DNA of 64,000 bases from a virus. Both the position numbers and the translations under genes were made by a program. The stretch lies in the IMG/VR virus record IMGVR_UViG_3300037512_001384, positions 6,442 through 70,441 of that record, one strand, 5' to 3'. Each line of letters starts with the position of its first letter. The stretch's first letter is position 1. A model generated the notes under the pieces. The model searched no databases. It was not told where the DNA came from and worked only from the letters and a program-made list of their open reading frames with translations. Shown here piece after piece: positions 29,321 to 43,863 of this stretch.

Positions 29321-29593
29321 TTAGTAGTGTTGCTGAACGAGGTTGTCGATAGAATCAAGCACCTCATCCACGTCACGTATCACTCCCATCTTACCGAGAT
29401 CTTCCACGATACATTTAAGTCTGACGTAGTTCTTAACCCCCACACGTGTGGCTCCTACGCCGTTTTTTACGAATGACGGGCGTATGGAATGGAAGTGCTT
29501 ACGGAAGAACTGTTCAAGCGACATGAAGCCCACTGTCTTGCTCTTCTGTTCCCTGTTGCTGAAATACTCAGCGGCTAATTTCCTCAGTCTCAT
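29321..29593 (-). CDS. hypothetical protein
   Basis: ORF-track ORF with a weak cassette upstream. Confidence 0.5.
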   Translation of the reverse strand: MRLRKLAAEYFSNREQKSKTVGFMSLEQFFRKHFHSIRPSFVKNGVGATRVGVKNYVRLKCIVEDLGKMGVIRDVDEVLDSIDNLVQQHY

Positions 29594-29626
29594 AGTTACT
29601 TCTCAATTAGTTAAGTTACTACCCTG

Positions 29627-29779
29627 TTAATTACTGACCGCCTGCACCGTATGAGCCTTGAAGTGGAATAATGCATCTGCAGGTGTCATAGGAATCGGGG
29701 TTGAAAGTATTTCCTCCTTACCCCGGCGGTACACCCTCCATTGGGTGTACTTCTTCTGGGTTGTTTTCTCTTCTTTCAT
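29627..29779 (-). CDS. hypothetical protein (50 aa, not in ORF track)
   Basis: MKEEKTTQKKYTQWRVY..; start preceded by the cassette (hairpin TATAGCTG..CAGCTATA). Confidence 0.45.
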   Translation of the reverse strand: MKEEKTTQKKYTQWRVYRRGKEEILSTPIPMTPADALFHFKAHTVQAVSN

Positions 29780-29844
29780 TGCGAATCATTTTAGTTAGAC
29801 ATAATGGCGATTATAGCTGCGTTTCCACAGCTATAACCTTCTTG

Positions 29845-30435
29845 TTACTCGGCGATGTAATCATTCCAGAGAGCTTGTGCCATGATCTCCGCTGCAATCT
29901 CGTCCTCGGGAAGTTGGTTGAACATATCCAATGTGTTGCCATGAAGATCCTCGTCCCCGGCTTCCAAAACATCTCTAATCTCAGAGATGACATCGAGCAT
30001 ATCATCTTTGAGCTGTTGAAAATCCTCAATAGGATTACCGTCGCTGTCATAACAATGGTCGTTCGGATCATTAAGGTTAAGTAGGATGTCGCCCGTTAAG
30101 TTGATAAAGTGATATTCATGATACCCGGGTACGAACGAATACTCTGTCTTGGCGTACTGTTCGCGCAGTGATTTGAGAATGAATATCAGCTCTTCTACCG
30201 GATGCTGAATAACGTATTCGCCTTCTTCTTGGTAGTCTTCAAAGAGCAGGATGATACCGTTATCGATTGGATTTAGGTCCACACCCTGCAGCAATACCTC
30301 GCCGTCATGGTCGTCAATCATGATAGGTGTCTCGAACGTCCACGCAAATCCCATTTTCTTCATCTCCTTGCGGATGTCAGCGATTACCTGCTCTTTGAGC
30401 TCCTTTACTTTTTCGTTGTAGTTTTTTGTTTCCAT
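29845..30435 (-). CDS. hypothetical, strongly acidic protein
   Basis: Cassette-defined start. D/E-rich throughout. Confidence 0.55.
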   Translation of the reverse strand: METKNYNEKVKELKEQVIADIRKEMKKMGFAWTFETPIMIDDHDGEVLLQGVDLNPIDNGIILLFEDYQEEGEYVIQHPVEELIFILKSLREQYAKTEYSFVPGYHEYHFINLTGDILLNLNDPNDHCYDSDGNPIEDFQQLKDDMLDVISEIRDVLEAGDEDLHGNTLDMFNQLPEDEIAAEIMAQALWNDYIAE

Positions 30436-30497
30436 AATTGATGTTTTTTAGGTTAAACGTGGTTCCCTGCAAGCATTTCCGTACTTGCAGGAATAAA

Positions 30498-30977
30498 TCA
30501 CCAATGATTCGCAGTACGTATGTGTTTCATTGTGAATGTAGCGGTCTCTAATGAGCCCTTGAACTTGATGCGGGTAAAGAATGTCACACCCAATTCTCCT
30601 GTGTTGGACAGTTCAGTCTCGACCTTTGTGATTTTGGATGTGTGATTCTTTCCGTCATCAGGGCAATACCATTTGACGGTATCGTTGATGCTGTAGGGAA
30701 TGACAATCAATCCGTTCGGTTTCTCACCCAGATCCACGAAGAAATCAGTCCATCGGTCGTGGCAATTTGCGTTCTTTTCAGGAAGGTATGGCCAGGCGTG
30801 ACTTGCATTCATCTTGTCATTGGTTATAAACCCACAGTCATATTTGCCGGGAGTATAGTTCTCCTTCTGTGAGTAGGCGGGCTCAAAATCACATAGGTAA
30901 ATCCGTCCTTTGCGATAGTAACCCTTGATGTCCTGTTTGCACAAAAACATGTGCCCTTTAATAATCCTCGGTTCCAT
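30498..30977 (-). CDS. hypothetical protein
   Basis: Cassette-defined start. Confidence 0.55.
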   Translation of the reverse strand: MEPRIIKGHMFLCKQDIKGYYRKGRIYLCDFEPAYSQKENYTPGKYDCGFITNDKMNASHAWPYLPEKNANCHDRWTDFFVDLGEKPNGLIVIPYSINDTVKWYCPDDGKNHTSKITKVETELSNTGELGVTFFTRIKFKGSLETATFTMKHIRTANHW

Positions 30978-31202
30978 TGTAGTATGATTTAAGAGTTAAA
31001 CAATTGTTGCCGTCACAAAAACTTTCATATCTTTGTGACGTGGAAACTAAAACGGATGTTCAGTCCGTATGTCGGGACTTACCTAAACCCAAGACTTATA
31101 GTCAGGGTGAAGTGCCACACTCTCAGGGAAATTGTAATGCGCATAATTACAATATTTAAAGAGTTAGTTTCCGTCCTCAGCTTAGGGCGCATGAGGGGCC
31201 TA

Positions 31203-31235
31203 AATGGATGTCTCGCTGGCATCCATTCTTTTTTT
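31203..31235 (+). terminator. plus-strand rho-independent terminator inside the leftward block
   Basis: AATGGATG..CATCCATT stem followed by C and seven T on the plus strand only. Confidence 0.55.
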
Positions 31236-31665
31236 ATGACCTGATTACACGGGCGTAGGAGTGAGTCGGATAGAATATTTCCTCTGCATTCCATGCGCTC
31301 GCCAAATCGTGCAAGTCCTCGAAGCAATCCACGTAATCCGAACCGGCATCGTACATCTCCAATATCTCCTTGTCGGATATTTCATTAAACTCTTTCTCGT
31401 CAAGGATGTCAGCATTGCTATCCAAGATATAGATGCGCTCACGAGATAATGGTTCCTTCATCAGACAACAGAGTAATGCGTCATTGAGCAGATTGGGGAG
31501 TTCTTCCTCGAAATAACCATCCGCGTAATTATCGATTACCTTTCCCTTGAGATTGCAGATGTCAAGGCGGTACGTGTTGTCTTCAGCTTTGACGCTTAGC
31601 TTATAACCGCGTTCTTTTAATTGTTCGTTGGCGAACTTCAGCAGTTTCTTGTTTTCTTTTTCCAT
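31234..31665 (-). CDS. hypothetical acidic protein
   Basis: Cassette-defined start. Confidence 0.55.
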   Translation of the reverse strand: MEKENKKLLKFANEQLKERGYKLSVKAEDNTYRLDICNLKGKVIDNYADGYFEEELPNLLNDALLCCLMKEPLSRERIYILDSNADILDEKEFNEISDKEILEMYDAGSDYVDCFEDLHDLASAWNAEEIFYPTHSYARVIRS

Positions 31666-31730
31666 AATAGTGTAGTGTTAGAGTTAAACAATAGCTGATG
31701 CTGTCAGTGTCATCCGGCAGCATCGTAGAT

Positions 31731-32030
31731 TCATATCCAGCTCACGAAGTCAATCTCCGTCTCTTCAGTGATGTTGATAGGCTCTTCGGTGACAATCGTA
31801 CCGCAGAAGTTGACCATGATACCGGCACCTTCCTTCTGAACTGTTACGGGTGTACTCCAGTCCCCGTCATCATTGTGTCTGGTGTGATACATGTGTTTGC
31901 CTTCGGGGATTGAGTTCGGATCAAGGCGCATTCCGTCAAAGAACTGCACTTCCCGGTTCTTATCTTCTCCTACTACATGAATCTCCAGCTTGTCGCAGTA
32001 ATCGAGATGTTCGTTGTAATTGTAAAGCAT
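31731..32030 (-). CDS. hypothetical protein
   Basis: Cassette-defined start. Confidence 0.55.
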   Translation of the reverse strand: MLYNYNEHLDYCDKLEIHVVGEDKNREVQFFDGMRLDPNSIPEGKHMYHTRHNDDGDWSTPVTVQKEGAGIMVNFCGTIVTEEPINITEETEIDFVSWI

Positions 32031-32094
32031 AATAATATAATTTTGAGTTAAACATATTTGCTTTGGTGTCGAATATCACTCCGACACCAAACAA

Positions 32095-32706
32095 TCAGAA
32101 CGGAAGAGGAATGTCCTCGATGATTTCATTCATAACCTCTTTCTCGAACTTCTCCAACTCCTCGATGTAGTCATAGTTGCCTTCGTCTTCATCCTTGCCG
32201 CCCAACCTCTTCTCAAATTCAACAGCTTTCTTGATGAAGTAAGCGGCTTTATCTCTGGAATCCAACCAAGGGTAACTTCCGCTTTTCTCAATCTTGGCGA
32301 TGTCTTCAGCGAGGTCTGCTACCAGATGTACGGCATTCTCCATCTCCTTGTAGGTGTATGTACGCACTTCGTCTTCTCCCTTGACCTCTATCTCAGGCAG
32401 ATAATCCATGATAAAATCAATGTGCGAATAGTGTACATCACCGAGTCCAATCTCAATGTCTGACACAGAACCGTCATGCAGATTGACTGACATACGGATG
32501 TTACCTTTGGACTCCACCCATATTTTCATCACATCTACGTCGCCTACATACTCGCAATCGTCAATGCTGGCTGTTATGATGGGGTATTCTATACCGGAAT
32601 CCTTCCATGTAAAACTGCCTCCCAGCTTTTCCAGGCACTTGCGCAATTCCCTTTGTTCCTTTACGGCTATTTCAGCATACGCTTTGTAAAATGATTCATG
32701 TTTCAT
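32095..32706 (-). CDS. hypothetical acidic protein
   Basis: Cassette-defined start. Confidence 0.55.
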   Translation of the reverse strand: MKHESFYKAYAEIAVKEQRELRKCLEKLGGSFTWKDSGIEYPIITASIDDCEYVGDVDVMKIWVESKGNIRMSVNLHDGSVSDIEIGLGDVHYSHIDFIMDYLPEIEVKGEDEVRTYTYKEMENAVHLVADLAEDIAKIEKSGSYPWLDSRDKAAYFIKKAVEFEKRLGGKDEDEGNYDYIEELEKFEKEVMNEIIEDIPLPF

Positions 32707-32749
32707 AATTGTAGTTTTAAGAGTTAGTTACATGGTGGAGAGATGCATT

Positions 32750-33250
32750 TTACTGCATCATCTCCTTCGGTATCAGACAGGTTGGGTTATCATTGATGTA
32801 TCTTATGATTCGCTCTATTGTAACCCAGCCGAGGCTTGCCACTCGGTCATGCCAATCATCTGCATCATCCGGATTATCCGTGTATATTATGCCCGGATTG
32901 ACGTAGTGGTAGCACATAAGATGCTCAGAGCCGTCATTTTCTTTCCGTATGTAGATACAACGGATAGAACGGTGGGTAAATTCATCTTCGAGAAGGTCAT
33001 AAACGTTATCGTCAATGTCACTCATGGAGATTTCAGGATTGACGAGACTCTTCATCTTGATAACTTCACATCCGGCTCTCTCATTGAAGGACAATACGTG
33101 AGTTGCCTCTGCTCCGTCCAAATCCAATCCGAACTCCTTGATGTCACCGGGCGTGGGCTTATGTCCTTTCTCGCGAACATACTCCATGAGTTGTTTAACC
33201 ACCTCATCCGCAGCTCTGTTCATTGATGTCATTAAGTCACTTGCTTTCAT
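32750..33250 (-). CDS. hypothetical protein
   Basis: ORF 32750-33337 trimmed to MKASDLM by the cassette. Confidence 0.5.
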   Translation of the reverse strand: MKASDLMTSMNRAADEVVKQLMEYVREKGHKPTPGDIKEFGLDLDGAEATHVLSFNERAGCEVIKMKSLVNPEISMSDIDDNVYDLLEDEFTHRSIRCIYIRKENDGSEHLMCYHYVNPGIIYTDNPDDADDWHDRVASLGWVTIERIIRYINDNPTCLIPKEMMQ

Positions 33251-33308
33251 AATCGTATTTATTTGAGTTAAGTTGTATCCTTGCGCCCGGTTAAGAGCGC
33301 ATGGATAG

Positions 33309-33854
33309 TCAGATCTCGTAGAAGGGAATCTGGTCATCGGCTGTCATCCTTCCTGTAAGCAGTTGGAAGAAGACCGTCTCATAACGTCTATGCTCAGGAC
33401 CTTCGGAATTTCTCATACAATCGAAGTATTTCTCCATTGCGGCTCGTCTGGTCATTACCTCTGTGTCGTTGTAGCAGATGACAGTTACCTGCTCTTCGAG
33501 TTTACTTTCAGCTAAACCGCTGAGAGCAGATGCTTTTGGTTCACTGAGTTCCTTGTCAAGCGTAGCCCATACGTCTATGAGAGATTCACCGAGATAGTTT
33601 AGAAGGCTGTCGCCAATCACCCATTCGGTCTCCTTGCCGGATACTTCCGTAGATACCTCGAATCGTAGTTCTCCGTCAGAATCAGCCATAACGGAATGAC
33701 ACAATTCCTTGGCGCATACCTCACCTTCAAGGAAGAAGATTTGTACGGGCTTCTTGAACTTATGGCAAACTCCCATACCCAGGCGGTTGAGCATATCACT
33801 AATCATCTGGCGTTTGGCGGCCTCAATCATCGTTTCATAAACTTGTCTTTGCAT
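33309..33854 (-). CDS. hypothetical protein
   Basis: Cassette-defined start. Confidence 0.55.
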   Translation of the reverse strand: MQRQVYETMIEAAKRQMISDMLNRLGMGVCHKFKKPVQIFFLEGEVCAKELCHSVMADSDGELRFEVSTEVSGKETEWVIGDSLLNYLGESLIDVWATLDKELSEPKASALSGLAESKLEEQVTVICYNDTEVMTRRAAMEKYFDCMRNSEGPEHRRYETVFFQLLTGRMTADDQIPFYEI

Positions 33855-33919
33855 AATTGTAGAGTATTTGAGTTAAACAATTGGTATGTGGCAAGGAAGC
33901 TGCTCGTTGCCACACTGAC

Positions 33920-34126
33920 TTACTTGACCTCATAGTAATCGTCGGGATAACGGCTCATATAGTTGCGAATATCCTCCTCTGTCCAATCATCGGTCATACA
34001 TCCTTTACCCTGAACGTTGGTCCTATATTTGGCTATTACCTTGCCTTTCTCATATACCCTGATGGTGTAAGTCCTGTCATGGTGGTTAGCCTTGATTCTG
34101 TAATTTCTGTCTTTTCTGTTGTACAT
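33920..34126 (-). CDS. hypothetical protein
   Basis: Trimmed to MYNRKDRN by the cassette. Confidence 0.5.
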   Translation of the reverse strand: MYNRKDRNYRIKANHHDRTYTIRVYEKGKVIAKYRTNVQGKGCMTDDWTEEDIRNYMSRYPDDYYEVK

Positions 34127-34187
34127 AGTTTCGGTTTTAGTTGAACATAGTGACCATTCTATTGTTTCCAATAAAATGGTCCGGGTG

Positions 34188-34544
34188 CTAACTTACATAG
34201 TTACCGCAAGGGGTATCTGTTGTAACGTTGGCAAAACTAAGACGATAATCGGCTGGCTTGCCGTCAAAATACGTGTTGATAGTCTCAAGGATTTCTTCCT
34301 CAGAATGGTCATCCTGATATTGGCTGAAATCGCAGTAGCTGTCATCTACATAGTCTTTGTTCTCTGACATGTGGCGTACAAAATCCTCCAATTTCTCGAT
34401 GAAGAAATCGCACTCCATATTGGCCCAGTAATCCTCATTGTGGTAGATGTAACCGAAGATATGGATAAACTTTACTCCATGCTCTTCATAAATCTGGAAG
34501 AAGTCCAATTCTTCCGGTTTGGTTAATTTCTCGAATTTCTGCAT
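34188..34544 (-). CDS. hypothetical acidic protein
   Basis: Trimmed to MQKFEKL by the cassette. Confidence 0.5.
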   Translation of the reverse strand: MQKFEKLTKPEELDFFQIYEEHGVKFIHIFGYIYHNEDYWANMECDFFIEKLEDFVRHMSENKDYVDDSYCDFSQYQDDHSEEEILETINTYFDGKPADYRLSFANVTTDTPCGNYVS

Positions 34545-34603
34545 AGCTGTACGTTTTGAGTTAATGGCATCTCCTGTCGGTGTCGCCCGGCAGAAGATGA
34601 TAG

Positions 34604-34834
34604 TCACTTGATCCAATAGAAGGATGCACGTTTGCCTACGATAGCCACCGCGTCAGTTACAAGCCCTCTCGCGTTGCTGATGTCATAGACTTGTCCGAGA
34701 CGCGATTCATACCTCTCGCTCTTGTTGGCTATGAATGTCTCCCAGTACATCTTGTCGATGACCAGCAATCCAAGGTCCATCAGATCTTTTGCGCTACCCG
34801 CAAGATGCAGGTCTTTCTTTGTCAGTTTCTCCAT
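34604..34834 (-). CDS. hypothetical protein
   Basis: Cassette-defined start. Confidence 0.5.
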   Translation of the reverse strand: MEKLTKKDLHLAGSAKDLMDLGLLVIDKMYWETFIANKSERYESRLGQVYDISNARGLVTDAVAIVGKRASFYWIK

Positions 34835-34885
34835 AATCTTTTGTTTTGAGTTGGTGGACAGGCGAATGTTATTCCGCCTTATCCT

Positions 34886-35083
34886 TCAGGCGACAATCTC
34901 CAGCTCGTGAGGGAACGCCTCTAAGTCTGAATACTCGTCGGAGCACTGCACAAAATCGCCCTTGAGATTGTCAATGGTGAAGATGCGCGACAAGTCACGG
35001 TTCTCAATGTCAGGATCGTAGAATCTTACCTTAGCGCCAACAGACAATTCCTTTCCGTTGATGTCATACATTTTCTCTTCCAT
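34886..35083 (-). CDS. hypothetical protein
   Basis: Cassette-defined start. Confidence 0.5.
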   Translation of the reverse strand: MEEKMYDINGKELSVGAKVRFYDPDIENRDLSRIFTIDNLKGDFVQCSDEYSDLEAFPHELEIVA

Positions 35084-35143
35084 AATTTAGAGTTTAAGAG
35101 TTAGTAGCTCCGTAACCGTCCGTCAAGACCGCTACGGAAATAG

Positions 35144-35269
35144 TTACGGGCGATAGAAGAAGCGGTGGTCCATTGATACCATGATAACTGAACCGTTGCT
35201 CTGCTCGTGCTCAAAAAAATCCTGATGCAGATATTCTTTGTTAATCTGCTTGCCTCGGAGTTCCGTCAT
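35144..35269 (-). CDS. hypothetical protein (41 aa)
   Basis: ATGA overlap with the stop of the upstream gene. No cassette of its own. Confidence 0.35.
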   Translation of the reverse strand: MTELRGKQINKEYLHQDFFEHEQSNGSVIMVSMDHRFFYRP

Positions 35270-36039
35270 GCCGCAATTTTTGAGAAGTGAATCTCTTCCA
35301 GCCTGTACGGTGTGCCGAAGTTGCCCCATGAGCTTGTCTTTACCTCGTACATGATGTGATACATGCCGTTCTTGCTCCGTTCATACTTGTAGCCTATTAT
35401 CGTTCCCTCTGTACGTTCATCAGCGTGACGGTAAAGTTTGACGTAGCATTTCTTGCCAATCTCAAAGCCGGATGCAGGGCGCAAATCTTCAGCGACCAGG
35501 CTCCCGTCCCAAGCTCCAAGATCAACCTTTTCCCATCCCTCACGGAACGCTTTCGGCATACGCTCGATGGTGTCGAACTTGATGTCTTCGGTGGAGGTGA
35601 TGAGCTTGTCCTTGCGGAGCTGCACGAGAAGATTGTTATATACATACTGCTGAATCTCTGTCGGAGCTTTGCAAGCCTCCTTATAGACGGCATAATACTG
35701 AGATGCTATCTGTCTGTTCTCGGAGAGATACTTCAGGTTCTGTCCGAAAGTCAGACCACCCAGATAATCATCGTTGACACGTGACGGATGCGAGTAGTTG
35801 CAGCCCCAATTCTGATAGTGGGATTCCCTGCGGTTCTCCGCATCCCATCTCTTCTTGAGTTCAGGGCGAAAGTCATGCCTCTCGCCATACTTGTCCACGT
35901 CATACTTGGGATAGGTGTATTCAAAATCGCCTACTTTCACTCTGACGCATTCGGTCTCGTGATTCCAATCGTCCTTGACGGTGATGTCCTCGCTCGTTCC
36001 TTTGTCGAGATAATCGAGGATGTTTTCTTTCTTTGCCAT
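35266..36039 (-). CDS. hypothetical protein
   Basis: ORF 35266-36231 trimmed to MAKKENIL by the cassette. Confidence 0.55.
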   Translation of the reverse strand: MAKKENILDYLDKGTSEDITVKDDWNHETECVRVKVGDFEYTYPKYDVDKYGERHDFRPELKKRWDAENRRESHYQNWGCNYSHPSRVNDDYLGGLTFGQNLKYLSENRQIASQYYAVYKEACKAPTEIQQYVYNNLLVQLRKDKLITSTEDIKFDTIERMPKAFREGWEKVDLGAWDGSLVAEDLRPASGFEIGKKCYVKLYRHADERTEGTIIGYKYERSKNGMYHIMYEVKTSSWGNFGTPYRLEEIHFSKIAA

Positions 36040-36349: not shown

Positions 36350-36361
36350 ATCCGTAAAAGT

Positions 36362-37139: not shown

Positions 37140-37925
37140 TTAATCGCGCTTTACGGCAATAACATCTTCGCAACCCATATCACTCACGCGGAGTCTGATT
37201 CTGAGCAATTTGTATGCTCTGCTGGGAAGGAGGTCATACTCCTCTTCGTTTACGTCCTCCTGATAGGCTACAAGATTATATCTACCGTTTGCGTTGGCGT
37301 TGAAAGCCAGCATGTCGCAGTTATCGGCATCATAGGCGAAACCGATACCCTTCTCTTGTGCGTTCTTCCAAGCATCCTCTACCGCTTTCAGCGCCTCCTT
37401 CTGCTCGTCTGTCAGCATGACCTTACGGACAACTCCTTCATGGACTTTCTCGTTGCCCTCTTCATCGACATACTTGAATGAAGACATTCCGGCACAAATT
37501 TCCTTGTCGATGTAGTAGTCATCGGGGAGGGAATCAGCCTTGAAGTCCCATACATCAGAGGCATTGATATGTCCTTCTATCGTCTGGAAGTCAAACTCAT
37601 GCTCAACTGGCTGGCCGTTCTCTGATGTGAAGTAACGCCATTCGTTATTGAGATTGAGCTGATAAGGCGACAGGGTGTCGGGAGATGCAGGTATATTCTC
37701 GGTGTACGCTTTCATGTTGGGATAGAGCTGGGTATAGTGAATCTTCATGTTTTCACTATCCTTGTCTGTCCTGACGATGAGATGAATGTCATTGTGGATA
37801 GGGTTGCCGTTCTCGTCCTCTTTCTTTGTGAGAATCTGACCGACAACTTGCACCTTACGCAGAGCGCCACCTGTGAATACGAATCCTTCTTTCAGATACA
37901 CACAATAAATGTTTGAATGTGTCAT
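37140..37925 (-). CDS. hypothetical protein
   Basis: Cassette-defined start. Confidence 0.55.
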   Translation of the reverse strand: MTHSNIYCVYLKEGFVFTGGALRKVQVVGQILTKKEDENGNPIHNDIHLIVRTDKDSENMKIHYTQLYPNMKAYTENIPASPDTLSPYQLNLNNEWRYFTSENGQPVEHEFDFQTIEGHINASDVWDFKADSLPDDYYIDKEICAGMSSFKYVDEEGNEKVHEGVVRKVMLTDEQKEALKAVEDAWKNAQEKGIGFAYDADNCDMLAFNANANGRYNLVAYQEDVNEEEYDLLPSRAYKLLRIRLRVSDMGCEDVIAVKRD

Positions 37926-37989
37926 AGTTGTAATTTTTTAGAGTTAAACATAATGGTTGCTCCCGCCTGAGTTTTCATACCCAGGCAGG
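37926..37989 (-). promoter_or_regulatory. representative cassette (hairpin + leader box)
   Basis: Minus strand: CCTGCCTGGGtatgaaaaCTCAGGCGGG, then gagcaaccattATGTTTAACTCTAAAAAATTACAACTATG. Confidence 0.6.
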
Positions 37990-38012
37990 ATGATTTGAGT
38001 TTGAACGAATGT

Positions 38013-38246
38013 TCAATAATCCACCTTAATCCCGCATCTCCTGACAACATCCTCTTGCGAACGATGAACCCAGCAGGGATATTTATCACCCTCAGTCCAC
38101 ATTATCAATTCGCCATCGTGCATAGTTCGTTTGTAATCAATATAATGAGCCCTTATAGCTTCTATATGTAACCCATTTTTTTGCAATACCTCAAGAACCT
38201 CATGCACAGAGTTCCTTCGCGTCTCGATGTAATATAGATTATTCAT
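38013..38246 (-). CDS. hypothetical protein
   Basis: Cassette-defined start. Confidence 0.5.
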   Translation of the reverse strand: MNNLYYIETRRNSVHEVLEVLQKNGLHIEAIRAHYIDYKRTMHDGELIMWTEGDKYPCWVHRSQEDVVRRCGIKVDY

Positions 38247-38297
38247 AATTATAAGTTTTGGTTTGCGGATTCGGGGATGTCGTTCCCCGGAATCCTG

Positions 38298-38759
38298 TCA
38301 TGCCGCCATCTTCTCCCATTCCTCAATCTGCTCGTATGTCAGCCATTCGGGTTTGAGGTCTTCGGGTATCTTGTTCCAATACTCCTTGACGGCGGCAATA
38401 GTGTCGCGGATGCTACCGCCTATAAAATGCTCATTATGATAGCGGCAGTCCCATTTGTCGTTATCCTCGTTGCCTGACTTGCCGAAATATGCGGCTGCGT
38501 CATCGCTGAGGCGGCTCAGCATCATGTACTCGAACTGAAATCCTTTCATCCTCCGTTCTTTGTCCGTCAGAGGATTGGTGATTTCAAAGTTCTCGATACA
38601 AACATCCGGCTCTCCGTCTTGTTCCGTAGGAGGACACAGGCGGTAAAGTGCATTTGGATTGTCGTTGTTGCAGTCCACGTAATACCTGCCATATTCGTCC
38701 TTATACAGAGTTCCTTCCATTCGGTGCTCTCCGATTCTCGTCACTTTGATTTTTTCCAT
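38298..38759 (-). CDS. hypothetical protein
   Basis: Overlaps the upstream gene by 19 nt (co-transcribed). Confidence 0.55.
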   Translation of the reverse strand: MEKIKVTRIGEHRMEGTLYKDEYGRYYVDCNNDNPNALYRLCPPTEQDGEPDVCIENFEITNPLTDKERRMKGFQFEYMMLSRLSDDAAAYFGKSGNEDNDKWDCRYHNEHFIGGSIRDTIAAVKEYWNKIPEDLKPEWLTYEQIEEWEKMAA

Positions 38760-38944
38760 ATCAGATACAGTTTTCTTAATAATCCATAGACTTGCATTCT
38801 CATTAGATTTTCAAGGCGGTAACGCTCCATGTAGTTAAAGGCGTATGACTTAGCCGTCATGTAGCCGCATCGTCTGTAACGTCTGCCTATACATCTGAGG
38901 AATGCTTTGAACATCACGGGTGAACACGTTGTTTTTTCTTCCAT
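38741..38944 (-). CDS. hypothetical protein
   Basis: Cassette-defined start. Confidence 0.5.
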   Translation of the reverse strand: MEEKTTCSPVMFKAFLRCIGRRYRRCGYMTAKSYAFNYMERYRLENLMRMQVYGLLRKLYLIWKKSK

Positions 38945-39004
38945 AGTCTGTAATTTATAGTTAAACAGTTCCGCATGGAGATTTTGCTCTCCACGCAGAT
39001 AATG

Positions 39005-39997
39005 TCACGCATCGGCCCAGTAAGTCCAAGTGTGGATCTTGCTCACCCCGTAGCGGTTGAGGTAGGCGTCGAGACGTTTGCGGAACTTCTCCAGCCCGAA
39101 CTTCAGACCGTCAAGGATGAGGGCGCGTTCCTCCTTGCTCGCCTCATGGCCTTCGTTGTTGTACCACGACCTGCCGATAAGGAAATCGAGCTTGTTCTTG
39201 TAACCTGTCTCAGCGATACGCAGTGTCTCACCCTTCTCGATGCTCTCAATGGAGCGAGTGAAGGCGCTTTCGTTCTGCTGGATGAAATACTGACGGAGTT
39301 TACTCTCGTCTTTCATCAGCTCGCAATAGAACTTATAGTCCGGTCCTTCGTCATGGAAGCAGAAGCGGTTGTCTATTGACGGCTTGGTTATCAAGTAGAA
39401 ATGTCCGTCAATCTTCACCGCTCCGACACATCCCTTGCTGTAGTAGTCGCGGTCTGACTTGTCATCTTTGCACTCGGTGTCAAGAAACTCGCTGAGCCAC
39501 GTGATGAACTTCTCGTCCTTCTTGGCAGTCTTCTCGACCTTGGCGGTAATATGTGATGCTCCGCCTCCGATGAACGCCTCCACAGCCTCGCGCTTGTCGT
39601 TATTGAACAGCCAGCCCGCTCCGCAGGAGAGGAACTTGTTGAACTTCCAAGCCCCGAGTTTCTTCAGCTGCTCGCGGTAAGTGAACGTGTCACCCACAAC
39701 CGCGAAGCATTTCTCTGAATATTCTACGATTCTCAGGTCAGGCCCGTCGGTTTTCAGAGCCGCCTTGATGTCGTTGAAATCCTCCTCACCCAGCCAATCC
39801 GAACAGGAGAGGCCGTCAGGGAAATCCTCGGTGTCCTGAATCATAAACTCCGGATCGCTCTCGTTCTTGTGCAGTTCTTTGCACTTCGAGATAAACGCAT
39901 TGTAGTTCTCACAATCCGCGAGAGAAACCCATCCGCCCGCGATGCTGCCGTTGTTGTACTTACCCCAAGTACCGACATAAACTTTTGGATTACACAT
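39005..39997 (-). CDS. ArdA-like antirestriction N-terminal domain fused to a C-terminal domain of unknown function
   Basis: KVYVGTWGKYNNGSIAGGWVSL..PEFMIQDTEDFP parallels the ArdA N-terminus (VYIANLGKYNEGELVGAW..). Cassette-defined start. Confidence 0.6.
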   Translation of the reverse strand: MCNPKVYVGTWGKYNNGSIAGGWVSLADCENYNAFISKCKELHKNESDPEFMIQDTEDFPDGLSCSDWLGEEDFNDIKAALKTDGPDLRIVEYSEKCFAVVGDTFTYREQLKKLGAWKFNKFLSCGAGWLFNNDKREAVEAFIGGGASHITAKVEKTAKKDEKFITWLSEFLDTECKDDKSDRDYYSKGCVGAVKIDGHFYLITKPSIDNRFCFHDEGPDYKFYCELMKDESKLRQYFIQQNESAFTRSIESIEKGETLRIAETGYKNKLDFLIGRSWYNNEGHEASKEERALILDGLKFGLEKFRKRLDAYLNRYGVSKIHTWTYWADA

Positions 39998-40058
39998 AGT
40001 TGTAGAATTTAAGGTTAAACATAGTGGCGGTTACGGGAGATTCCGCTCTCCCATAACC
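39998..40058 (-). promoter_or_regulatory. representative cassette
   Basis: Minus strand: GGTTATGGGAGAgcggaaTCTCCCGTAACC, then gccactATGTTTAACCTTAAATTCTACAACTATG. Confidence 0.6.
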
Positions 40059-40319
40059 TTAACATTCGCCAAGCGGCTTAAGTCCGACATACTGATATTC
40101 TGCGTCGCCTGTTCCGTTTTTCTTGAAAGTCTGATAGAGTGCGCAATTGCGATTCCAATCGTGAGAATACGCCTCGCCCGGCTGGAAGATTCCTCTTTCC
40201 CAAGTTGCAGGCGGTAACGCACCGCACAGTTCCCAGAACACTTCGTTTGATATGAACTGACCGACTTTGACGTTCAGAGTCTTATCTTTCTCCCATTGCT
40301 CCATTGTGTAGATATCCAT
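40059..40319 (-). CDS. hypothetical protein
   Basis: Trimmed to MDIYTMEQ by the cassette. Confidence 0.5.
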   Translation of the reverse strand: MDIYTMEQWEKDKTLNVKVGQFISNEVFWELCGALPPATWERGIFQPGEAYSHDWNRNCALYQTFKKNGTGDAEYQYVGLKPLGEC

Positions 40320-40469
40320 AATCGTAGAATTAAGAGTTAAACAATAGCACCCCAGAGAATATTTCCTATTCCCTGAGATTTGACGTGTAAGGAAATTTCT
40401 CATACCCTCGTGAGAAAATCTACCGCTGAGAGGGAGAAAATCGTTTGTAGGGCAAAAATTGCGGGAAAT

Positions 40470-40910
40470 TCACGCTGATTCCTCCATATCCAACTCTCCG
40501 AGACAATAGAGGGCGAAGTTCTCAGCCGTATCCTTCGCCTCATCCCATCCGATAGCCTCACCGAATCCGTCCGCGTATTGGCTGACCTCCTTCGCCTCCA
40601 CTCCGAGAGTGTTCTTGTAGTCACTGACGTAGCACGAGCCGAGGCAAATCTGACCGCGCAGTTTCTTCAGTTCATTGTAGCACAGGTCATCCACGTGTCG
40701 CCACGGCTGCAAATCGGTCGGATCACAGAGGAATGTCTGTCCGTCCGAATCCACGACATAGACGTTCACTAATTTCGGGGTTTGGTCAATCTCCTTCTTG
40801 GTGGGCTGGTTCTCATTGCACAGGTCAAGAATCTCGTCAATAGTGACAACCTCCTTGAACCAAGTATGGAAAACCTTCTTCCCTGACTTTACGAATCTTG
40901 AGTATTTCAT
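40470..40910 (-). CDS. hypothetical protein
   Basis: ORF 40470-41084 trimmed to MKYSRFV by the cassette. Confidence 0.5.
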   Translation of the reverse strand: MKYSRFVKSGKKVFHTWFKEVVTIDEILDLCNENQPTKKEIDQTPKLVNVYVVDSDGQTFLCDPTDLQPWRHVDDLCYNELKKLRGQICLGSCYVSDYKNTLGVEAKEVSQYADGFGEAIGWDEAKDTAENFALYCLGELDMEESA

Positions 40911-40971
40911 AATCATAGAATTTGAGTTAAACTTGGTTTCCGGAACCGCTCTCGCACGATTCCGGAATGAT

Positions 40972-41361
40972 TCATACATACTGCTCGATGCTCTCAGCGA
41001 TAGAGCCCAGCGTCTCATAGCACAGGTAATCTCCGTCACCGAAGGCGAACCAATCGGGATCCCACGTGGAATCGTTGGCGTCAAACACCTCGCCCGGCTC
41101 GTTGAGGTTTATCTTGTCGGTGTTAGGGAGAATCTGCAGGGTGTCGTTCTTGACGCGCACCGCGATGACCTCATAGGGGAACATAATGTCCAAGCTGCCG
41201 TCAGAGCAGAACCTGTACGTCCAGATGTTGTCCGTTGCTCCGTCTTCCTTCACGTGGGTGTCTATGTATCCTTTCTCGCCCTGATGCAGACGGATGAAAT
41301 TCTTCACAACTTCCTCCAGCGCCTTGGTGCCGTGGAACATCAAATCCTTAAGTATTTCCAT
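40972..41361 (-). CDS. hypothetical acidic protein
   Basis: Cassette-defined start. Confidence 0.55.
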   Translation of the reverse strand: MEILKDLMFHGTKALEEVVKNFIRLHQGEKGYIDTHVKEDGATDNIWTYRFCSDGSLDIMFPYEVIAVRVKNDTLQILPNTDKINLNEPGEVFDANDSTWDPDWFAFGDGDYLCYETLGSIAESIEQYV

Positions 41362-41464
41362 ATCGTTTCAATTTTAGGTTAAACATAGTAGGCGCAGCCG
41401 GATTCCATCCCGCTGCACCCGAAAAACACTTAAATACACAACTAAGATTGTTGTTATCCTTTCG

Positions 41465-41785
41465 TCACGCAGGGACGGCCGGTTCGTACTCCAGCTCGCA
41501 GCTGCCGATTCCCTCGTCATAGAGTTTCAGCTCGGGAGCGCAGCACGAGATGACATCCGTTCCCTCATAGAAGAAACACGTCTTCTTGGACATCCCCACG
41601 ATGATTTTCTCACGCGCCCACTCAAGGTTGCGCTTGTTGAGGAAATCACGTTTGTATCGCTGGCAGATATAGAGAGTAAGCGCATAATAGGCGGAATATT
41701 TGCCCTCATACGTGGCCAGCTCCTCTATCTCGCCATTCTCGTGAATGACATTGATGACATTCAGGTTCTTGTTGGTCCTTCTCAT
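41465..41785 (-). CDS. hypothetical protein
   Basis: Cassette-defined start. Confidence 0.55.
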   Translation of the reverse strand: MRRTNKNLNVINVIHENGEIEELATYEGKYSAYYALTLYICQRYKRDFLNKRNLEWAREKIIVGMSKKTCFFYEGTDVISCCAPELKLYDEGIGSCELEYEPAVPA

Positions 41786-41849
41786 AATCGTAGCATTAAA
41801 GAGTTATTCGCTCCGACAGGAGTTATCTCTCCTCCTGCCGGAAATAGTG

Positions 41850-42149
41850 TCAGTTGCCGATGACGAATCCGTAGCGTTTCCACATCTCCATACCGGTTTC
41901 CTTGTATTCGGCGTCCTTGTCCCAATTCTCGGGAATCCACACGTCAATGCCGAAGTCGCTGTCCTCTATGTATTCCCTCGGAATACCCAGGTCCTGACAT
42001 AGCATCTGCACGTCAGATAATGTCGGTACGTTACAGCCTCCGTAGATGCATACTTCTCCTTCTGTTTCCCAATCCTCGGTTGAATAGCCGAAATCGTGGT
42101 TCTGGGCTATATGCTCGATACCCCAGCATAATACTTCAATTTTCTTCAT
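41850..42149 (-). CDS. hypothetical acidic protein
   Basis: Cassette-defined start. Confidence 0.55.
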   Translation of the reverse strand: MKKIEVLCWGIEHIAQNHDFGYSTEDWETEGEVCIYGGCNVPTLSDVQMLCQDLGIPREYIEDSDFGIDVWIPENWDKDAEYKETGMEMWKRYGFVIGN

Positions 42150-42204
42150 AGTTGTATAGTTTAAGAGTTGGTTGGCGCGTCAGGGAATTTCCGTATTCCC
42201 TGAC
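42150..42204 (-). promoter_or_regulatory. representative cassette
   Basis: Minus strand: GTCAGGGAAtacggaaaTTCCCTGAC, then gcgccaaccAACTCTTAAACTATACAACTATG. Confidence 0.6.
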
Positions 42205-42211
42205 ACAAAAG

Positions 42212-42874
42212 TCACGCTGCGTCCGGCTCGCATATACCACGGAACAGCGTTCCGTCCTCGCAGTAGATCTCGTCCTCGTCAATCAGCAGCTCCTCGCGGA
42301 CGTACTCGTCACTTCCTCCGGATTCCATATCATCCCGCCTTTCCTTGAAGAAACTGTCCAGGCAGTCATCCACCAAATCATACAGGGATTTGTTGTAGTC
42401 GGGTTTCCTGAACCATTCATAGACAGGATGCAGGATGAAGTTGTCACCGCAGAATCCGGTGAGCGGACAGTCGTAGTCCACGAGCAGGATCTTGGAGTTC
42501 TTGCTCTTGCCGTACACCCACTTGCCGTCCTCTCCGAGATGTCCTTTCGCGGAGATATATTTCCCTTTGAATACGTACTTGTGGATGTCACGCATAAAAC
42601 GCGCCAGATATTTTCCTGTCACGTCCTCCGCGTCTCTCTCATAGACGTCATTCTTGAAACGGAACCGGTAATCGTAGGAACAGGAATCCACCTCCCAGTG
42701 TCTCACGTCAATACCGAACAGCTCGCAGAACTCTTTCAGCGAGTCGCGGTATTCCGATTCCCAGGCGTCTATGTGTAACCGCTGTATGTCGTCACGCTCG
42801 CGGTCAATGACTTTCTTCTGAGCCTCTTCGCTCAGCTCCTCAAACTTGTAGAGCTTACATTTCACTTCTCTCAT
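42212..42874 (-). CDS. hypothetical protein
   Basis: Cassette-defined start. Confidence 0.55.
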   Translation of the reverse strand: MREVKCKLYKFEELSEEAQKKVIDRERDDIQRLHIDAWESEYRDSLKEFCELFGIDVRHWEVDSCSYDYRFRFKNDVYERDAEDVTGKYLARFMRDIHKYVFKGKYISAKGHLGEDGKWVYGKSKNSKILLVDYDCPLTGFCGDNFILHPVYEWFRKPDYNKSLYDLVDDCLDSFFKERRDDMESGGSDEYVREELLIDEDEIYCEDGTLFRGICEPDAA

Positions 42875-42896
42875 TGTCGTAGTATTTAAGTATGGT

Positions 42897-43227
42897 TTAT
42901 CGTACTCCGGTAGTCCGTCAGGACAGCCGGAATCATTTTCACGCAGCGGAGTATGATTTATCGTACTTTCCGAACTGTCCGTACATCGTCAGGTTCTTTC
43001 CCGTACTCTTGGCGGTCAGCTCATAACTCCTGTTGCGGATTCTCCTGTAGATTCTCGTCTTCATAATCGTAGTATTTTAGAGTTGGTGATAATCGTACTG
43101 CGTAGGGTTTCCGTACTCTCCGTCAGTTTTCGTACTGCGGATAATTATCGTACTATCCGCAGTTATGGCCGCGAATCGCTTTGTCTGTCATCCGCGTGAC
43201 GTATCCTCAGCCGTTGGTTTACGTACT
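42897..43227 (+). repeat. array of eight CGTACT hexamers (plus one CGTACA), all on the same strand
   Basis: Copies at 42901, 42962, 43002, 43094, 43112, 43131, 43149 and 43222. Sub-families TTATCGTACT (3 copies), TCCGTACTCT (2) and CGTACTGCG (2). Confidence 0.85.
42939..43064 (-). CDS. hypothetical basic protein (41 aa, not in ORF track)
   Basis: MKTRIYRRIRNRSYELTAK..; cassette-defined start. Confidence 0.4.
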   Translation of the reverse strand: MKTRIYRRIRNRSYELTAKSTGKNLTMYGQFGKYDKSYSAA

Positions 43228-43239
43228 GATTCCGCGTTC

Positions 43240-43380
43240 TCAGGACAGACCTTCAAGCAATCCGCAAAGGAGTATGAACAGGACACAGCCGGACATCGTG
43301 ACGATGATCCCGCCTATCGTGTAGTCCTCATCGAGCCAGTGCACTTTCTTGCACAGCAAATCCAAAATCTTCTCTTTCAT
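43240..43380 (-). CDS. small membrane protein (46 aa)
   Basis: Trimmed to MKEKILDLL by the cassette. C-terminal hydrophobic helix. Confidence 0.4.
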   Translation of the reverse strand: MKEKILDLLCKKVHWLDEDYTIGGIIVTMSGCVLFILLCGLLEGLS

Positions 43381-43411
43381 AATCGTAGTATCTATAGAGT
43401 TGTAGTTTCCG

Positions 43412-43768
43412 TCACGCATTTCCCATACGTGACAGAATGACCACGCGGTCCTGTTCCGGCAGTGTCGGGAGGATCGCGAAGAACAGCTTCTTGGCGGATG
43501 TGAAATCCACTCCGTTCTCCGCCAGAAATTCCTTTGACCATCGGTACTGCGCCATATCTTTCTTAAGGGCGCAGAAGTCAAACATAAAATCAAAGACTTT
43601 CATCGATACCTTGCGGGCCTCCGGTGTCTGCATCCATTCGGCCGATTTCAGGTATTCGGGAAAGTCACGTCCGTAAACCTTGAGGTTGCGGACGTCACGA
43701 GGGAGCTGCATCATATAATCCCAGGCACGCTGGCGCTCATACTCCCGTCTTTCCTTGTCTGCGTTCAT
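43412..43768 (-). CDS. hypothetical protein
   Basis: ATGA overlap with the upstream micro-ORF. Confidence 0.5.
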   Translation of the reverse strand: MNADKERREYERQRAWDYMMQLPRDVRNLKVYGRDFPEYLKSAEWMQTPEARKVSMKVFDFMFDFCALKKDMAQYRWSKEFLAENGVDFTSAKKLFFAILPTLPEQDRVVILSRMGNA

Positions 43769-43863
43769 AGTTCAAGAGAATCTTCTGCGCACAGACATTC
43801 GATCATCTCCTCCGCTCCCAGTCTTTCAAGCAGCTTGGAGGATAACCTGATAAATTCTTTCAT
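43765..43863 (-). CDS. hypothetical protein (32 aa, not in ORF track)
   Basis: MKEFIRLSSKLLERLGAEEMIECLCAEDSLEL. Cassette-defined start and ATGA overlap downstream. Confidence 0.35.
   Translation of the reverse strand: MKEFIRLSSKLLERLGAEEMIECLCAEDSLEL

Follow-up and report, generated by a model that had tools for sequence, protein, structure and literature searches.

Organization of the leftward block

The present analysis concerns the leftward gene block found between positions 26668 and 45185 of a 64,000-nucleotide stretch of viral DNA (positions 6,442 to 70,441 of the IMG/VR virus record IMGVR_UViG_3300037512_001384, hereafter the window), which the family and profile hits of its encoded proteins identify as a tailed-phage genome. 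In this block, about 27-29 cassettes succeed one another in one orientation, each being made of one to three small open reading frames (ORFs) headed by a composite module of about 60 nt, in which a hairpin, a conserved box and a translation leader are successively found. The features of the block and of its borders are listed below from right to left, with protein lengths in amino acids (aa) and, where relevant, the isoelectric point (pI) or the net charge.

26668-45185, minus strand: whole leftward block, comprising the promoter box candidate, the first gene, the array, the FtsK-like gene and the Xer-like recombinase gene; all genes on the minus strand
45186-46013, no strand assigned: control region, AT-rich and non-coding, between the array and the rightward P4/D5-type primase gene
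45178-45185, minus strand: TATTTTTG, an exact TAnnTTTG -7 box found by pattern scan, the sole one on the coding strand upstream of the array
44516-45170, minus strand: cassette 1, with hairpin 45127-45170, leader 45101-45124 and ORF 44516-45100 (194 aa, pI 9.1)
44464-44500, minus strand: intrinsic terminator, 13-bp GC-rich stem and U6, directly 3' of the first gene
43864-44463, minus strand: structured non-coding stretch, no gene called
43240-43934, minus strand: cassette 2, with hairpin 43884-43934, leader 43864-43887, ORF 43765-43863 (32 aa) and two further ORFs, 43412-43768 (118 aa) and 43240-43380 (46 aa, own leader)
42897-43227, minus strand: cluster of 6-7 copies of the repeat AGTACGA(T/A)AA, on the coding strand only, overlapping spacers and ORF 42939-43064
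42939-43096, minus strand: cassette 3, with leader 43065-43088 and ORF 42939-43064 (41 aa, pI 10.4)
42212-42945, minus strand: cassette 4, module and ORF 42212-42874 (220 aa, net -17, phrog_10310)
41850-42207, minus strand: cassette 5, module and ORF 41850-42149 (99 aa, pI 4.2)
41465-41843, minus strand: cassette 6, module and ORF 41465-41785 (106 aa)
40972-41420, minus strand: cassette 7, module and ORF 40972-41361 (129 aa, pI 4.3)
40470-40967, minus strand: cassette 8, module and ORF 40470-40910 (146 aa, pI 4.6)
40059-40386, minus strand: cassette 9, module and ORF 40059-40319 (86 aa)
39005-40063, minus strand: cassette 10, module and ORF 39005-39997 (330 aa, ArdA-N fusion)
38298-39016, minus strand: cassette 11, module and ORFs 38741-38944 (67 aa, basic) and 38298-38759 (153 aa, LPD11)
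38013-38309, minus strand: cassette 12, module and ORF 38013-38246 (77 aa)
37140-37990, minus strand: cassette 13, module and ORF 37140-37925 (261 aa, net -19)
36104-37132, minus strand: cassette 14, one module for ORFs 36726-37073 (115 aa), 36362-36712 (116 aa) and 36104-36349 (81 aa)
35144-36106, minus strand: cassette 15, module and ORFs 35266-36039 (257 aa) and 35144-35269 (41 aa)
34886-35151, minus strand: cassette 16, module and ORF 34886-35083 (65 aa, pI 4.3)
34604-34901, minus strand: cassette 17, module and ORF 34604-34834 (76 aa)
34188-34615, minus strand: cassette 18, module and ORF 34188-34544 (118 aa, net -18)
33920-34188, minus strand: cassette 19, module and ORF 33920-34126 (68 aa)
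33309-33915, minus strand: cassette 20, module and ORF 33309-33854 (181 aa, pI 4.7)
32750-33307, minus strand: cassette 21, module and ORF 32750-33250 (166 aa, pI 4.7)
32095-32765, minus strand: cassette 22, module and ORF 32095-32706 (203 aa, net -22)
31731-32094, minus strand: cassette 23, module and ORF 31731-32030 (99 aa, LPD28)
31234-31724, minus strand: cassette 24, module and ORF 31234-31665 (143 aa, pI 4.5)
31079-31230, minus strand: cassette 25, with hairpin, leader and the 21-aa micro-ORF 31079-31144; 99.6% conserved in the related contig L010
30498-31047, minus strand: cassette 26, module and ORF 30498-30977 (159 aa)
29845-30503, minus strand: cassette 27, module and ORF 29845-30435 (196 aa, net -33)
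29627-29838, minus strand: cassette 28, module and ORF 29627-29779 (50 aa, basic)
29321-29617, minus strand: last small gene, ORF 29321-29593 (90 aa, basic), with a leader-like sequence but no hairpin upstream
29181-29277, plus strand: inverted leader copy (29181-29212), 10-aa ORF and hairpin (29246-29277) at the left edge of the array
27697-29145, minus strand: FtsK/SpoIIIE-like translocase, gene 27697-29073 (458 aa), preceded by a module-like hairpin and leader
26668-27571, minus strand: Xer-like tyrosine recombinase, gene 26668-27510 (280 aa), preceded by a hairpin and a weak leader

Genes were called by running an independent gene caller on a contig identical to the window, which yielded 32 minus-strand genes within 45100-29321, 31 of them inside 29321-43863. 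The leader adds three small ORFs missed by the caller, namely 42939-43064 (41 aa), 43240-43380 (46 aa, with a hydrophobic, transmembrane-like C-terminus) and 31079-31144 (21 aa), and corrects three start codons (38944, 37073 and 35083), bringing the total in 29321-43863 to 34 minus-strand genes of 21-330 aa. A previous sequence-only reading of this DNA had described about 38 leftward genes of 32-330 aa in that interval: the run of small leftward genes is confirmed, its count and sizes are not. The limits of the block also had to be extended beyond 29321-43863, since the leader precedes the first gene (44516-45100), the FtsK-like gene (27697-29073) and the recombinase gene (26668-27510) as well.

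The hairpin-box-leader module

Approximately 27 intercistronic spacers carry one and the same island-specific module, which lies before nearly every gene or tight group of two to three genes. Starting from the upstream stop codon, it continues with some 7 nt, then a hairpin whose stem has 10-13 bp and whose loop has 4-6 nt, another 5-12 nt, the box, the leader and the ATG, the length of the spacers being uniform (51-66 nt). The box has the consensus (A/T)TGTTTAAC, i.e. WTGTTTMAC, and is followed by TCTTAAA, a short variable stretch and CTACAAYT, then by the ATG. A position weight matrix (PWM) of the leader detects 24 minus-strand sites between 30436 and 45132 (the hits on the coding strand of the island being put at 24-27), no other gene of the 64-kb window being preceded by a match. 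On the plus strand, the sole strong PWM hit corresponds to the inverted leader copy at the left edge of the array; this element (29181-29277) may be what remains of an inverted cassette, or may mark a convergent boundary.

As a scan restricted to perfect stems of 9 bp or more turned out to be too strict, with only 2 hits, the hairpins were evaluated by energy-based scans instead. When compared to shuffled sequences, 24 of the 27 hairpins have a z-score below -2, with a mean folding free energy of -17.8 versus -8.2 for the shuffles, and they also differ from random windows of the island (p=2.5e-15). They vary in sequence but are alike in shape. In 22 of 26 hairpins, folding is better for the sense than for the antisense strand (Wilcoxon p=6e-5), G-U pairs amount to 48/342 in the sense strand versus 20/320 in the antisense strand and, in the orthologous hairpins of two phages, 16 of 22 stem substitutions keep the pairing. 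This sense-strand bias, the G-U pairs and the pairing-preserving substitutions therefore reflect a structure that is selected in the transcript. The possibility that the hairpins act as ordinary terminators was rejected, since they have no U-tracts, unlike the clear intrinsic terminators of the phage, that of the first gene and that at 19471-19492. An Rfam search of the 26-47 kb region returned only a sub-threshold and implausible match to a small nucleolar RNA.

Regarding the leader, adenines are found at positions -13, -12, -11, -6 and -3 in 73, 87, 87, 73 and 87% of the cases, compared to 61, 55, 35, 55 and 45% for the other genes of the window, and a T occupies position -1 in 87% of the leaders versus 55% of these other genes. 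The same A positions stimulate initiation in a bacterium devoid of Shine-Dalgarno sequences (Baez et al. 2019, PMC6847099), and in its 3' half the leader exaggerates the Shine-Dalgarno-less translation start of the Bacteroidetes. The genes of the window have no Shine-Dalgarno sequence and their upstream adenines follow the Bacteroidetes pattern, homologues of island genes are found in Paludibacteraceae and Bacteroidales metagenome-assembled genomes and in Bacteroides, and the portal protein shares 41% identity with that of LoVEphage, a 71-kb temperate Bacteroides phage (Van Espen et al. 2021, PMC8525569), and of its cultured relatives. The host is a member of the Bacteroidales and the phage is related to LoVEphage; given its recombinase and its temperate relatives (PMC8525569), it is probably temperate.

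The box, which forms the 5' half of the leader, is island-specific and resembles the Bacteroides -7 element TAnnTTTG minus its G. A pattern scan found the exact TAnnTTTG in none of the modules, and sigma-70-type promoters show no excess, with 32 sites versus 30.9 expected by chance. An exact scan of IMG/VR for TTGTTTAACTCTTAAA retrieved 112 contigs with one hit each and no arrays, which is, by our own uncomputed estimate, roughly the number expected by chance.

Exchange of whole cassettes between related phages

Closely and distantly related phages insert, delete, replace, reorder and transfer whole cassettes at the module or at its edges. A megablast search of 50,697 phage records gave no match to the island, none of them being close at the DNA level; public metagenome assemblies hold contigs identical or near-identical to the window. 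The related contigs used for comparison include L010, a 78-kb contig from another sample, and L142-L144, which are ENA contigs of 32-135 kb.

L010 is collinear with the window at 95-99% identity and differs from it by seven or more whole-cassette events. It has one extra cassette (122 aa) downstream of 41465-41785, another (131 aa) before 31234-31665, inserted at the GCTATTGTTTAA box of that cassette, and two more (93 and 118 aa) before 30498-30977, inserted at its box. It has neither 38741-38944 nor 34886-35083, one chimeric module being left at the latter. Besides, 40059-40319 is replaced by another ORF (L010 and L145 both display a different ORF, of 162 aa, between the leader of 40059-40319 and the next hairpin), and 34188-34544 by a Cys-rich 68-aa ORF. 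In the events E4, E6 and E7, the breakpoints lie between hairpin and leader within ATTGTTTAA/AACTC and leave one chimeric module, a geometry matching that proposed for the promoter-early stem-loop (PeSL) cassettes (PMC2839356); in the replacements E2 and E5, the ORF is swapped between the common leader/ATG and the next hairpin.

In L142-L144, the FtsK-like and recombinase genes are only about 74% identical to those of the window over short aligned stretches. These contigs show the same module design with a box variant, ATGTTTCAC, hairpin and leader preceding 23 of the 24 ORFs in L142, and their cassette content is almost wholly different from that of the window. Across six loci, 62 cassette families were counted, 27 of them singletons, with order changes and duplications. 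Two of the cassettes that are extra in L010 recur together in another context in L142 and, in L010, bear the L142-type box. In addition, the cassette 29845-30435 shows 93% nucleotide identity between the window and L142 over exactly the ORF and 16 nt of leader (window 30451-29852), the flanking DNA being unrelated on either side, which therefore indicates the transfer of a single cassette between divergent phages. In the distant phages L002 and L003, whose ArdA-N fusion proteins (see below) are 49% and 46% identical to that of the window, hairpins are followed by TAACC...AAA...ATTATG. In the first 50 kb of the 71-kb LoVEphage genome, no array was found, the 2 PWM-plus-hairpin hits (0.4 per 10 kb) being at background level; judged on these 50 kb, the module design looks lineage-specific within the wider LoVEphage group.

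The ratio of nonsynonymous to synonymous substitution rates (dN/dS), pooled over 26 orthologous pairs, is 0.20, the cassettes therefore containing real genes under constraint (purifying selection). The dS varies from 0 to 1.37 between neighbouring cassettes, reaching 0.83 for the ArdA-N gene and 1.37 for 36104-36349, for which L010 has a divergent allele with 63% aa identity, while their neighbours are at 0.01-0.05. Positive selection on these two alleles was considered and rejected, as their dN/dS is of 0.16-0.23 with a very high dS. A dN/dS of about 0.2 combined with such a dS designates the divergent alleles as imports from distant relatives.

Gene content of the island

The data support the view of the island as a discrete accessory set of lineage-restricted small proteins, almost all of them ORFans. 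A family match above threshold was obtained for only 4 of the 34 island proteins, the families being ArdA (N-terminal part), LPD11, LPD28 and phrog_10310. The first three (ArdA with its domain 1) are domains that also occur in conflict proteins of phages and conjugative elements. LPD11 is present in 38298-38759 (153 aa; Pfam score of 65.2 bits versus a cut-off of 27, E=5.5e-18) and LPD28 in 31731-32030 (99 aa; 50.5 bits versus a cut-off of 27, E=1.6e-13), while the phrog_10310 protein 42212-42874 belongs to an uncharacterised family that is widespread in phages and Bacteroides, a confident model of which gave no informative fold match. No housekeeping, structural, metabolic or known-defence assignment came out of Pfam, PHROGs, NCBIfam, PADLOC, PDB sequence or fold searches, and PADLOC found no defence systems. 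Among ten island proteins compared to NCBIfam, none scored above the curated cut-offs and eight had no match at all, the two others having chance-level matches (E 0.015-0.026) with scores far under the cut-offs; PDB sequence searches of four further proteins returned nothing. Homologues are very scarce for most island genes: 29845-30435, which encodes the most acidic protein, has only four homologue clusters in 5.8 billion proteins. A gene-family expansion was rejected, as an all-against-all comparison of the island proteins shows no significant paralogy.

On most of these points, the sequence-only reading was accurate; the hairpin-leader module and the shuffling of cassettes had escaped it. 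A discrete accessory island of small ORFan proteins is what the 4 matches out of 34 depict, and the profile and structure searches, which had been named as able to refute that reading, did not assign the island proteins to housekeeping or structural roles. The acidic character that it underlined is real: the pI is below 5 in 17 of 33 island proteins and, considering proteins of at least 60 aa, 16/29 are acidic in the island versus 10/64 elsewhere in the window (Fisher p=1.6e-4). Its five named examples are all acidic in terms of charge, pI or D/E content, with a net charge of -33 for 29845-30435, -14 for 31234-31665, -22 for 32095-32706 and -14 for 41850-42149, and 31% of D/E in 36104-36349. 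Basic micro-proteins are present as well (42939-43064, pI 10.4; 38741-38944, pI 10.1). As for the announced membrane micro-proteins, a single membrane-like one was found (43240-43380), and the zinc ribbons are not supported, with a single CxxC across the island proteins. At 14974-15180 of L010, the Cys-rich 68-aa protein replacing 34188-34544 resembles a zinc ribbon; this class exists in the pan-repertoire, though not in the window.

The ArdA-N fusion protein

The protein encoded by 39005-39997 contains an ArdA domain yet is not an ArdA. Residues 6-65 of its 330 align to positions 1-60 of the 155 in the Pfam ArdA profile (PF07275), with 42.2 bits versus a cut-off of 27, and phrog_2059 matches too. 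When the family profile was compared to PDB sequences, only residues 3-23 aligned to the ArdA of Tn916. Domains 2 and 3 of ArdA, the antirestriction motif and the VF motif were undetectable by profile comparison. McMahon et al. 2009 (PMC2731889) report that ArdA keeps its antirestriction when domain 1 (residues 3-61) is removed, and that domains 2-3 bind the methylase core and hold the antirestriction motif, the VF motif and the dimer interface. The net charge of the fusion is -9 over residues 1-85, +1 over 86-146 and -3 over 160-330; acidity is limited to the N-domain, the remaining 245 residues or so being near neutral, and at the level of this sequence-based charge test no continuous DNA-mimic negative surface extends over the whole protein. 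The earlier qualification as ArdA-like consequently holds for the match to N-terminal domain 1, but neither for the antirestriction-bearing domains 2-3 nor for a whole-protein acidity, and the label 'ArdA' is overstated because only domain 1, reported as dispensable for antirestriction, is present. Compared to the Orf18 ArdA of Tn916 (PDB 2w82), of about 165 aa, the island protein has 330 aa and its near-neutral remainder belongs to a separate conserved family.

In terms of layout, an ArdA domain-1 homologue is followed by a small beta-alpha domain and a conserved C-terminal domain. The fusion belongs to a large and well-conserved family, with members of about 330 aa numbering at least 669, and a tblastn search of phages with the protein gave one weak match, restricted to the N-domain. 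In the elements L011 and L012, genes of the fusion family adjoin polyvalent proteins of about 5,300 aa and PcfJ/PcfK, the family being linked to conjugative or phage-like elements of the Bacteroidota. These polyvalent proteins (L011 1-5532 and L012 1-6354) carry ddrB-ParB, AAA_34, Helicase_C_4 and LPD38 domains. Since domain 1 projects towards HsdR in the published ArdA model (PMC2731889), the fusion could, by analogy, still act on restriction complexes.

Control region and other features of the window

The control region, a 925-bp gene-free stretch, carries three to four TTTGGTACAT repeats at about 45860-45990 and a very AT-rich tract at about 45240-45360. It is a probable divergent promoter and replication origin region, the box at 45178-45185 being the candidate leftward promoter. 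No family was found for the first gene (44516-45100). The whole 652-nt gap between this gene and the array is structured (z=-5.6), and the succession of a basic first gene, a terminator and about 600 nt of structured non-coding sequence recalls the N-tL1 arrangement of lambda, which by analogy hints at antitermination or at a non-coding RNA. Within the array, the AGTACGA(T/A)AA cluster may represent a binding site for a regulator or another protein, similar strings being present in the modules of L002, a distant relative. At 31203-31237 of the non-coding (plus) strand, the conserved spacer of the micro-ORF 31079-31144 contains a terminator-like hairpin with a T-run, which could end an antisense transcript. 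At the other end of the block, the FtsK-like translocase gene adjoins that of the Xer-like recombinase (26668-29073), the pair being kept at the array end in L142-L144, which suggests an Xer/FtsK-style resolution or integration system in the phage.

Elsewhere, the structural genes of the window include those for the large terminase, an SPP1-type portal and the major capsid protein. The large terminase gene (55360-58152, minus strand; 930 aa) has a homing-endonuclease-type insertion, the Hom_end domain lying upstream of the match to the terminase N-domain, which is probably an intein or a mobile insertion. Replication and modification genes encode a primase-helicase, C5 and N6/N4 DNA methylases, a PAPS-reductase-like protein, DUF5131 and a P4/D5-type primase, in addition to the tyrosine recombinase and two FtsK-like proteins. 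The rightward arm (13555-16063 and 20708-23245, plus strand) groups DUF5131, a 578-aa C5 methylase, the PAPS-reductase-like protein and the N6/N4 methylase, a DNA-modification set consistent with the earlier mention of a methyltransferase arsenal. The second FtsK-like domain is fused to a PD-(D/E)XK nuclease at 571-2658 (plus strand).

Interpretation of the array

The reading that we favour, and that we regard as rather probable, is that of a hyperplastic accessory arm made of same-orientation expression cassettes, whose exchange is seamed by the module and whose cargo serves host takeover or counter-defence. The block is probably an early-left operon in view of its position: it extends directly leftward of the control region, a terminator follows its first gene and a recombinase gene lies at its end. 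In the proposed mechanism, the module would give every incoming ORF strong translation and would add either its own weak promoter or a processing/stability signal within a long early transcript, making the captured ORF expressible and insulated. Its conserved 12-30 nt would in addition serve as homology for relaxed phage recombination, with gain and loss at harmless sites. The cargo would then be effectors of host takeover or counter-defence, produced shortly after infection or induction. The acidic bias, the ArdA-N fusion and the polyvalent proteins next to its homologues, LPD11, LPD28, the extreme turnover and the searches that gave no structural, metabolic or defence assignment plausibly fit such a function, and Iyer et al. 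2017 (PMC5512222) propose that solo LPD domains help at an early stage of invasion. The counter-defence interpretation stays plausible, with its ArdA anchor weakened.

Several points nevertheless weigh against this reading. A canonical terminator separates the candidate promoter (45178-45185) from the array, which therefore needs either module promoters or antitermination of a long transcript. The term 'early' is derived from position only, the box deviates from the exact -7 element of Bacteroides, and there is no excess of sigma-70-type promoters. None of the cargo proteins has a homology-supported anti-defence activity, the ArdA-N fusion being devoid of the working domains of ArdA, and the only anti-defence homologue retrieved from Pfam, PHROGs, NCBIfam and PDB, which are general libraries and not dedicated anti-defence profiles, is this partial ArdA match. 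Besides, the comparisons are built on metagenome-assembled contigs, each cassette event may be a gain or a loss, and several gene starts were picked with the help of the leader itself. Finally, any homology-dependent process would place the breakpoints in the one sequence that is conserved, and their position therefore does not prove a dedicated mechanism.

How the array is expressed admits two answers, which we rate about equal and hold, both of them, as tentative. According to the first one, each module would be a promoter-terminator cassette, in full equivalence with PeSLs: the hairpin would stop or attenuate the upstream transcription, and WTGTTTMAC would act as a weak or factor-dependent -7-type promoter yielding monocistronic mRNAs with a leader of about 18 nt. 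In this respect, many boxes read TAnnTTT(A/C), i.e. 7/8 matches to the Bacteroides -7 consensus TAnnTTTG, and PeSL stem-loops likewise overlap promoter elements (PMC2839356). The distance between box and ATG would yield a typical short leader, and, since the first gene is followed by a terminator and no exact -7 box lies beyond it, the array needs promoters of its own or antitermination. However, the boxes systematically lack the G that is invariant in TAnnTTTG, the TA is absent or the spacing altered in about half of them, a conserved -33 element is impossible inside hairpins of variable sequence, and these hairpins lack the U-tract of the real terminators of the phage.

According to the second answer, the array would be one long antiterminated transcript on which the modules act after transcription, the hairpin as a 3' stabiliser or processing signal, the AU-rich box as an endonuclease site and the leader as a strong translation start, in the manner of the RNase III sites between the early genes of T7. 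Endonuclease entry sites are typically built as a stable stem with single-stranded, U-rich RNA behind it; in the island, the hairpins are under selection as sense RNA, they lack a U-tract, and the 3' half of the leader matches translation determinants exactly. The basic 194-aa first gene followed by a terminator, as in lambda N-tL1, points in the same direction. Conversely, family, profile and PDB sequence searches found no antiterminator homology for the first gene, the hairpins have no nut-like conserved sequence, and stems of 12-13 bp are short for RNase III.

Regarding the cargo, it appears unlikely that it consists of lysogenic-conversion, superinfection-exclusion or other 'moron' genes, or that the array is a nursery of young genes with little function. 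The probably temperate nature of the phage (recombinase; temperate relatives, PMC8525569), the Cro/CI-type helix-turn-helix and Bro-N proteins in the islands of relatives, and the very few homologues of most genes (4 clusters for 29845-30435) would agree with such contents, but PADLOC gives no match to known defence systems, the proteins, being small, acidic and cytoplasmic, are neither enzymes nor membrane exclusion proteins, the dN/dS of 0.20 speaks against junk, and the genes share an expression module unlike the rest of the phage.

Still less probable is the idea that the box constitutes a dedicated recombination site, in a phage-borne integron-like platform for gene capture, with which Bacteroidales phages would assemble and trade counter-defence genes and which the recombinase and FtsK would possibly serve; if true, this would represent a cassette system distinct from both integrons and PeSLs. 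Its more specific version, in which the Xer-like recombinase, with the FtsK-like translocase, recombines the cassettes at the box beside the hairpin, is the least probable of all: although the cassettes share one orientation with a hairpin at each 3' end, GTTTAAC fits the integron inverse-core pattern RYYYAAC, E4, E6 and E7 independently break within the same box (12 nt at most) and not in the equally conserved leader, and a tyrosine recombinase-FtsK pair ends the array in divergent lineages, the recombinase is weakly scored by Xer models, is not recognised as an integron integrase and is more simply a phage integrase or dimer resolvase, the hairpins have near-perfect stems with no extrahelical bases and no inverted GTTRRRY partner across them, the G-U pairs and sense bias indicate RNA and not single-stranded DNA, and other breakpoints fall elsewhere (ATG, stop codon, interior of the leader).

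Under the favoured reading of an accessory arm of exchangeable expression cassettes, the array is of interest in several respects. Gut Bacteroidales phages are abundant and poorly understood, most of their genes having no known function. The grammar formed by the hairpin, the box and the Shine-Dalgarno-less leader marks accessory cassettes, fixes start codons and exposes micro-ORFs missed by gene callers, and apparently corresponds to the seam of gene exchange between phages. It is also a sequence handle for mining the accessory repertoire, six loci already giving 62 families, and the module offers a portable expression element for Bacteroides genetics. Moreover, about 34 defined candidates are available to be screened for inhibitors of Bacteroides defence systems.

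Comparison with known systems

The early-left operon of lambdoid phages, organized as pL-N-tL1 ... ral, gam, ea genes ... xis-int, includes anti-host functions. The island resembles it as a leftward block issued from a control region, with a terminator after the first gene, small non-essential genes and a recombinase at its end, and it shares intercistronic hairpins with the early region of T7, where they are processed by RNase III. No sequence homology was found to the genes of the lambdoid early-left or T7 early regions, and lambda has nothing comparable to an identical module repeated in front of almost all genes.

Polyvalent proteins of phages and conjugative elements provide a second point of comparison, since ArdA, LPD11 and LPD28 belong to their domain repertoire (PMC5512222), solo LPD versions having been noted as small neighbouring ORFs (Iyer, Burroughs, Anand, de Souza, Aravind 2017, PMC5512222). 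In the island, LPD11 and LPD28 reside in separate small genes (153 aa and 99 aa) instead of one giant protein, and no embedded peptidase or delivery signal was seen in the island proteins.

With integrons, the island shares a unidirectional array of small and mostly unknown genes, a hairpin at the 3' end of each cassette, whole-cassette exchange and a tyrosine recombinase beside the array. Nevertheless, the IntI signature was not found in the recombinase, NCBIfam giving weak matches of the XerA, XerD and XerC type (38, 27 and 24 bits versus cut-offs of 220-335) among which no dedicated integron-integrase family appears. In place of an attC site, each module has one core-like box, and the stretch from the stop codon to the hairpin holds no inverted partner of it. 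The R''/R' inverted core and the extrahelical bases are thus missing, the structure is selected as sense RNA, the conserved sequence runs on to the start codon as a translation leader, and the recombinase gene lies at the distal end in the same orientation as the cassettes.

The closest analogue of the array is provided by the PeSL cassettes, mobile regulatory elements that populate the hyperplastic regions of T4-type phages (Arbiol et al. 2010, PMC2839356; Comeau et al. 2014, PMC4122927). In both cases, a repeated composite intergenic motif with a stable stem-loop lies between the upstream stop and the downstream translation start and is concentrated in a plastic, ORFan-rich region; close relatives differ by the insertion, deletion or replacement of motif-flanked ORFs, with a single chimeric motif remaining; and the motif provides expression signals to whatever ORF adjoins it, an activity which, for the island module, is deduced from its sequence. 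The two systems differ in several respects. The host of the island phage belongs to the Bacteroidota, those of PeSLs to the Proteobacteria or Cyanobacteria, and the island lies in a probably temperate LoVEphage-like genome of siphovirus type whereas PeSLs are found in T4-like myoviruses. Instead of the sigma-70 -35/-10 consensus and a Shine-Dalgarno sequence, the island uses the WTGTTTMAC box and an A-rich leader without Shine-Dalgarno; a consensus early promoter of the host (TTTG/TAnnTTTG) was not found in the modules, whose boxes are only near matches (TAnnTTTA/C). The hairpin of the island is always upstream of the box, while the position of the PeSL stem-loop varies. In addition, promoter and terminator activities and excised mini-circles are part of the description of PeSLs. 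The principle of PeSLs and hyperplastic regions being already known, what is new here is the cassette grammar and the direct evidence of cassette exchange: the array constitutes a variant of the PeSL/hyperplastic region in a new phage lineage and a new host phylum, with other expression signals.

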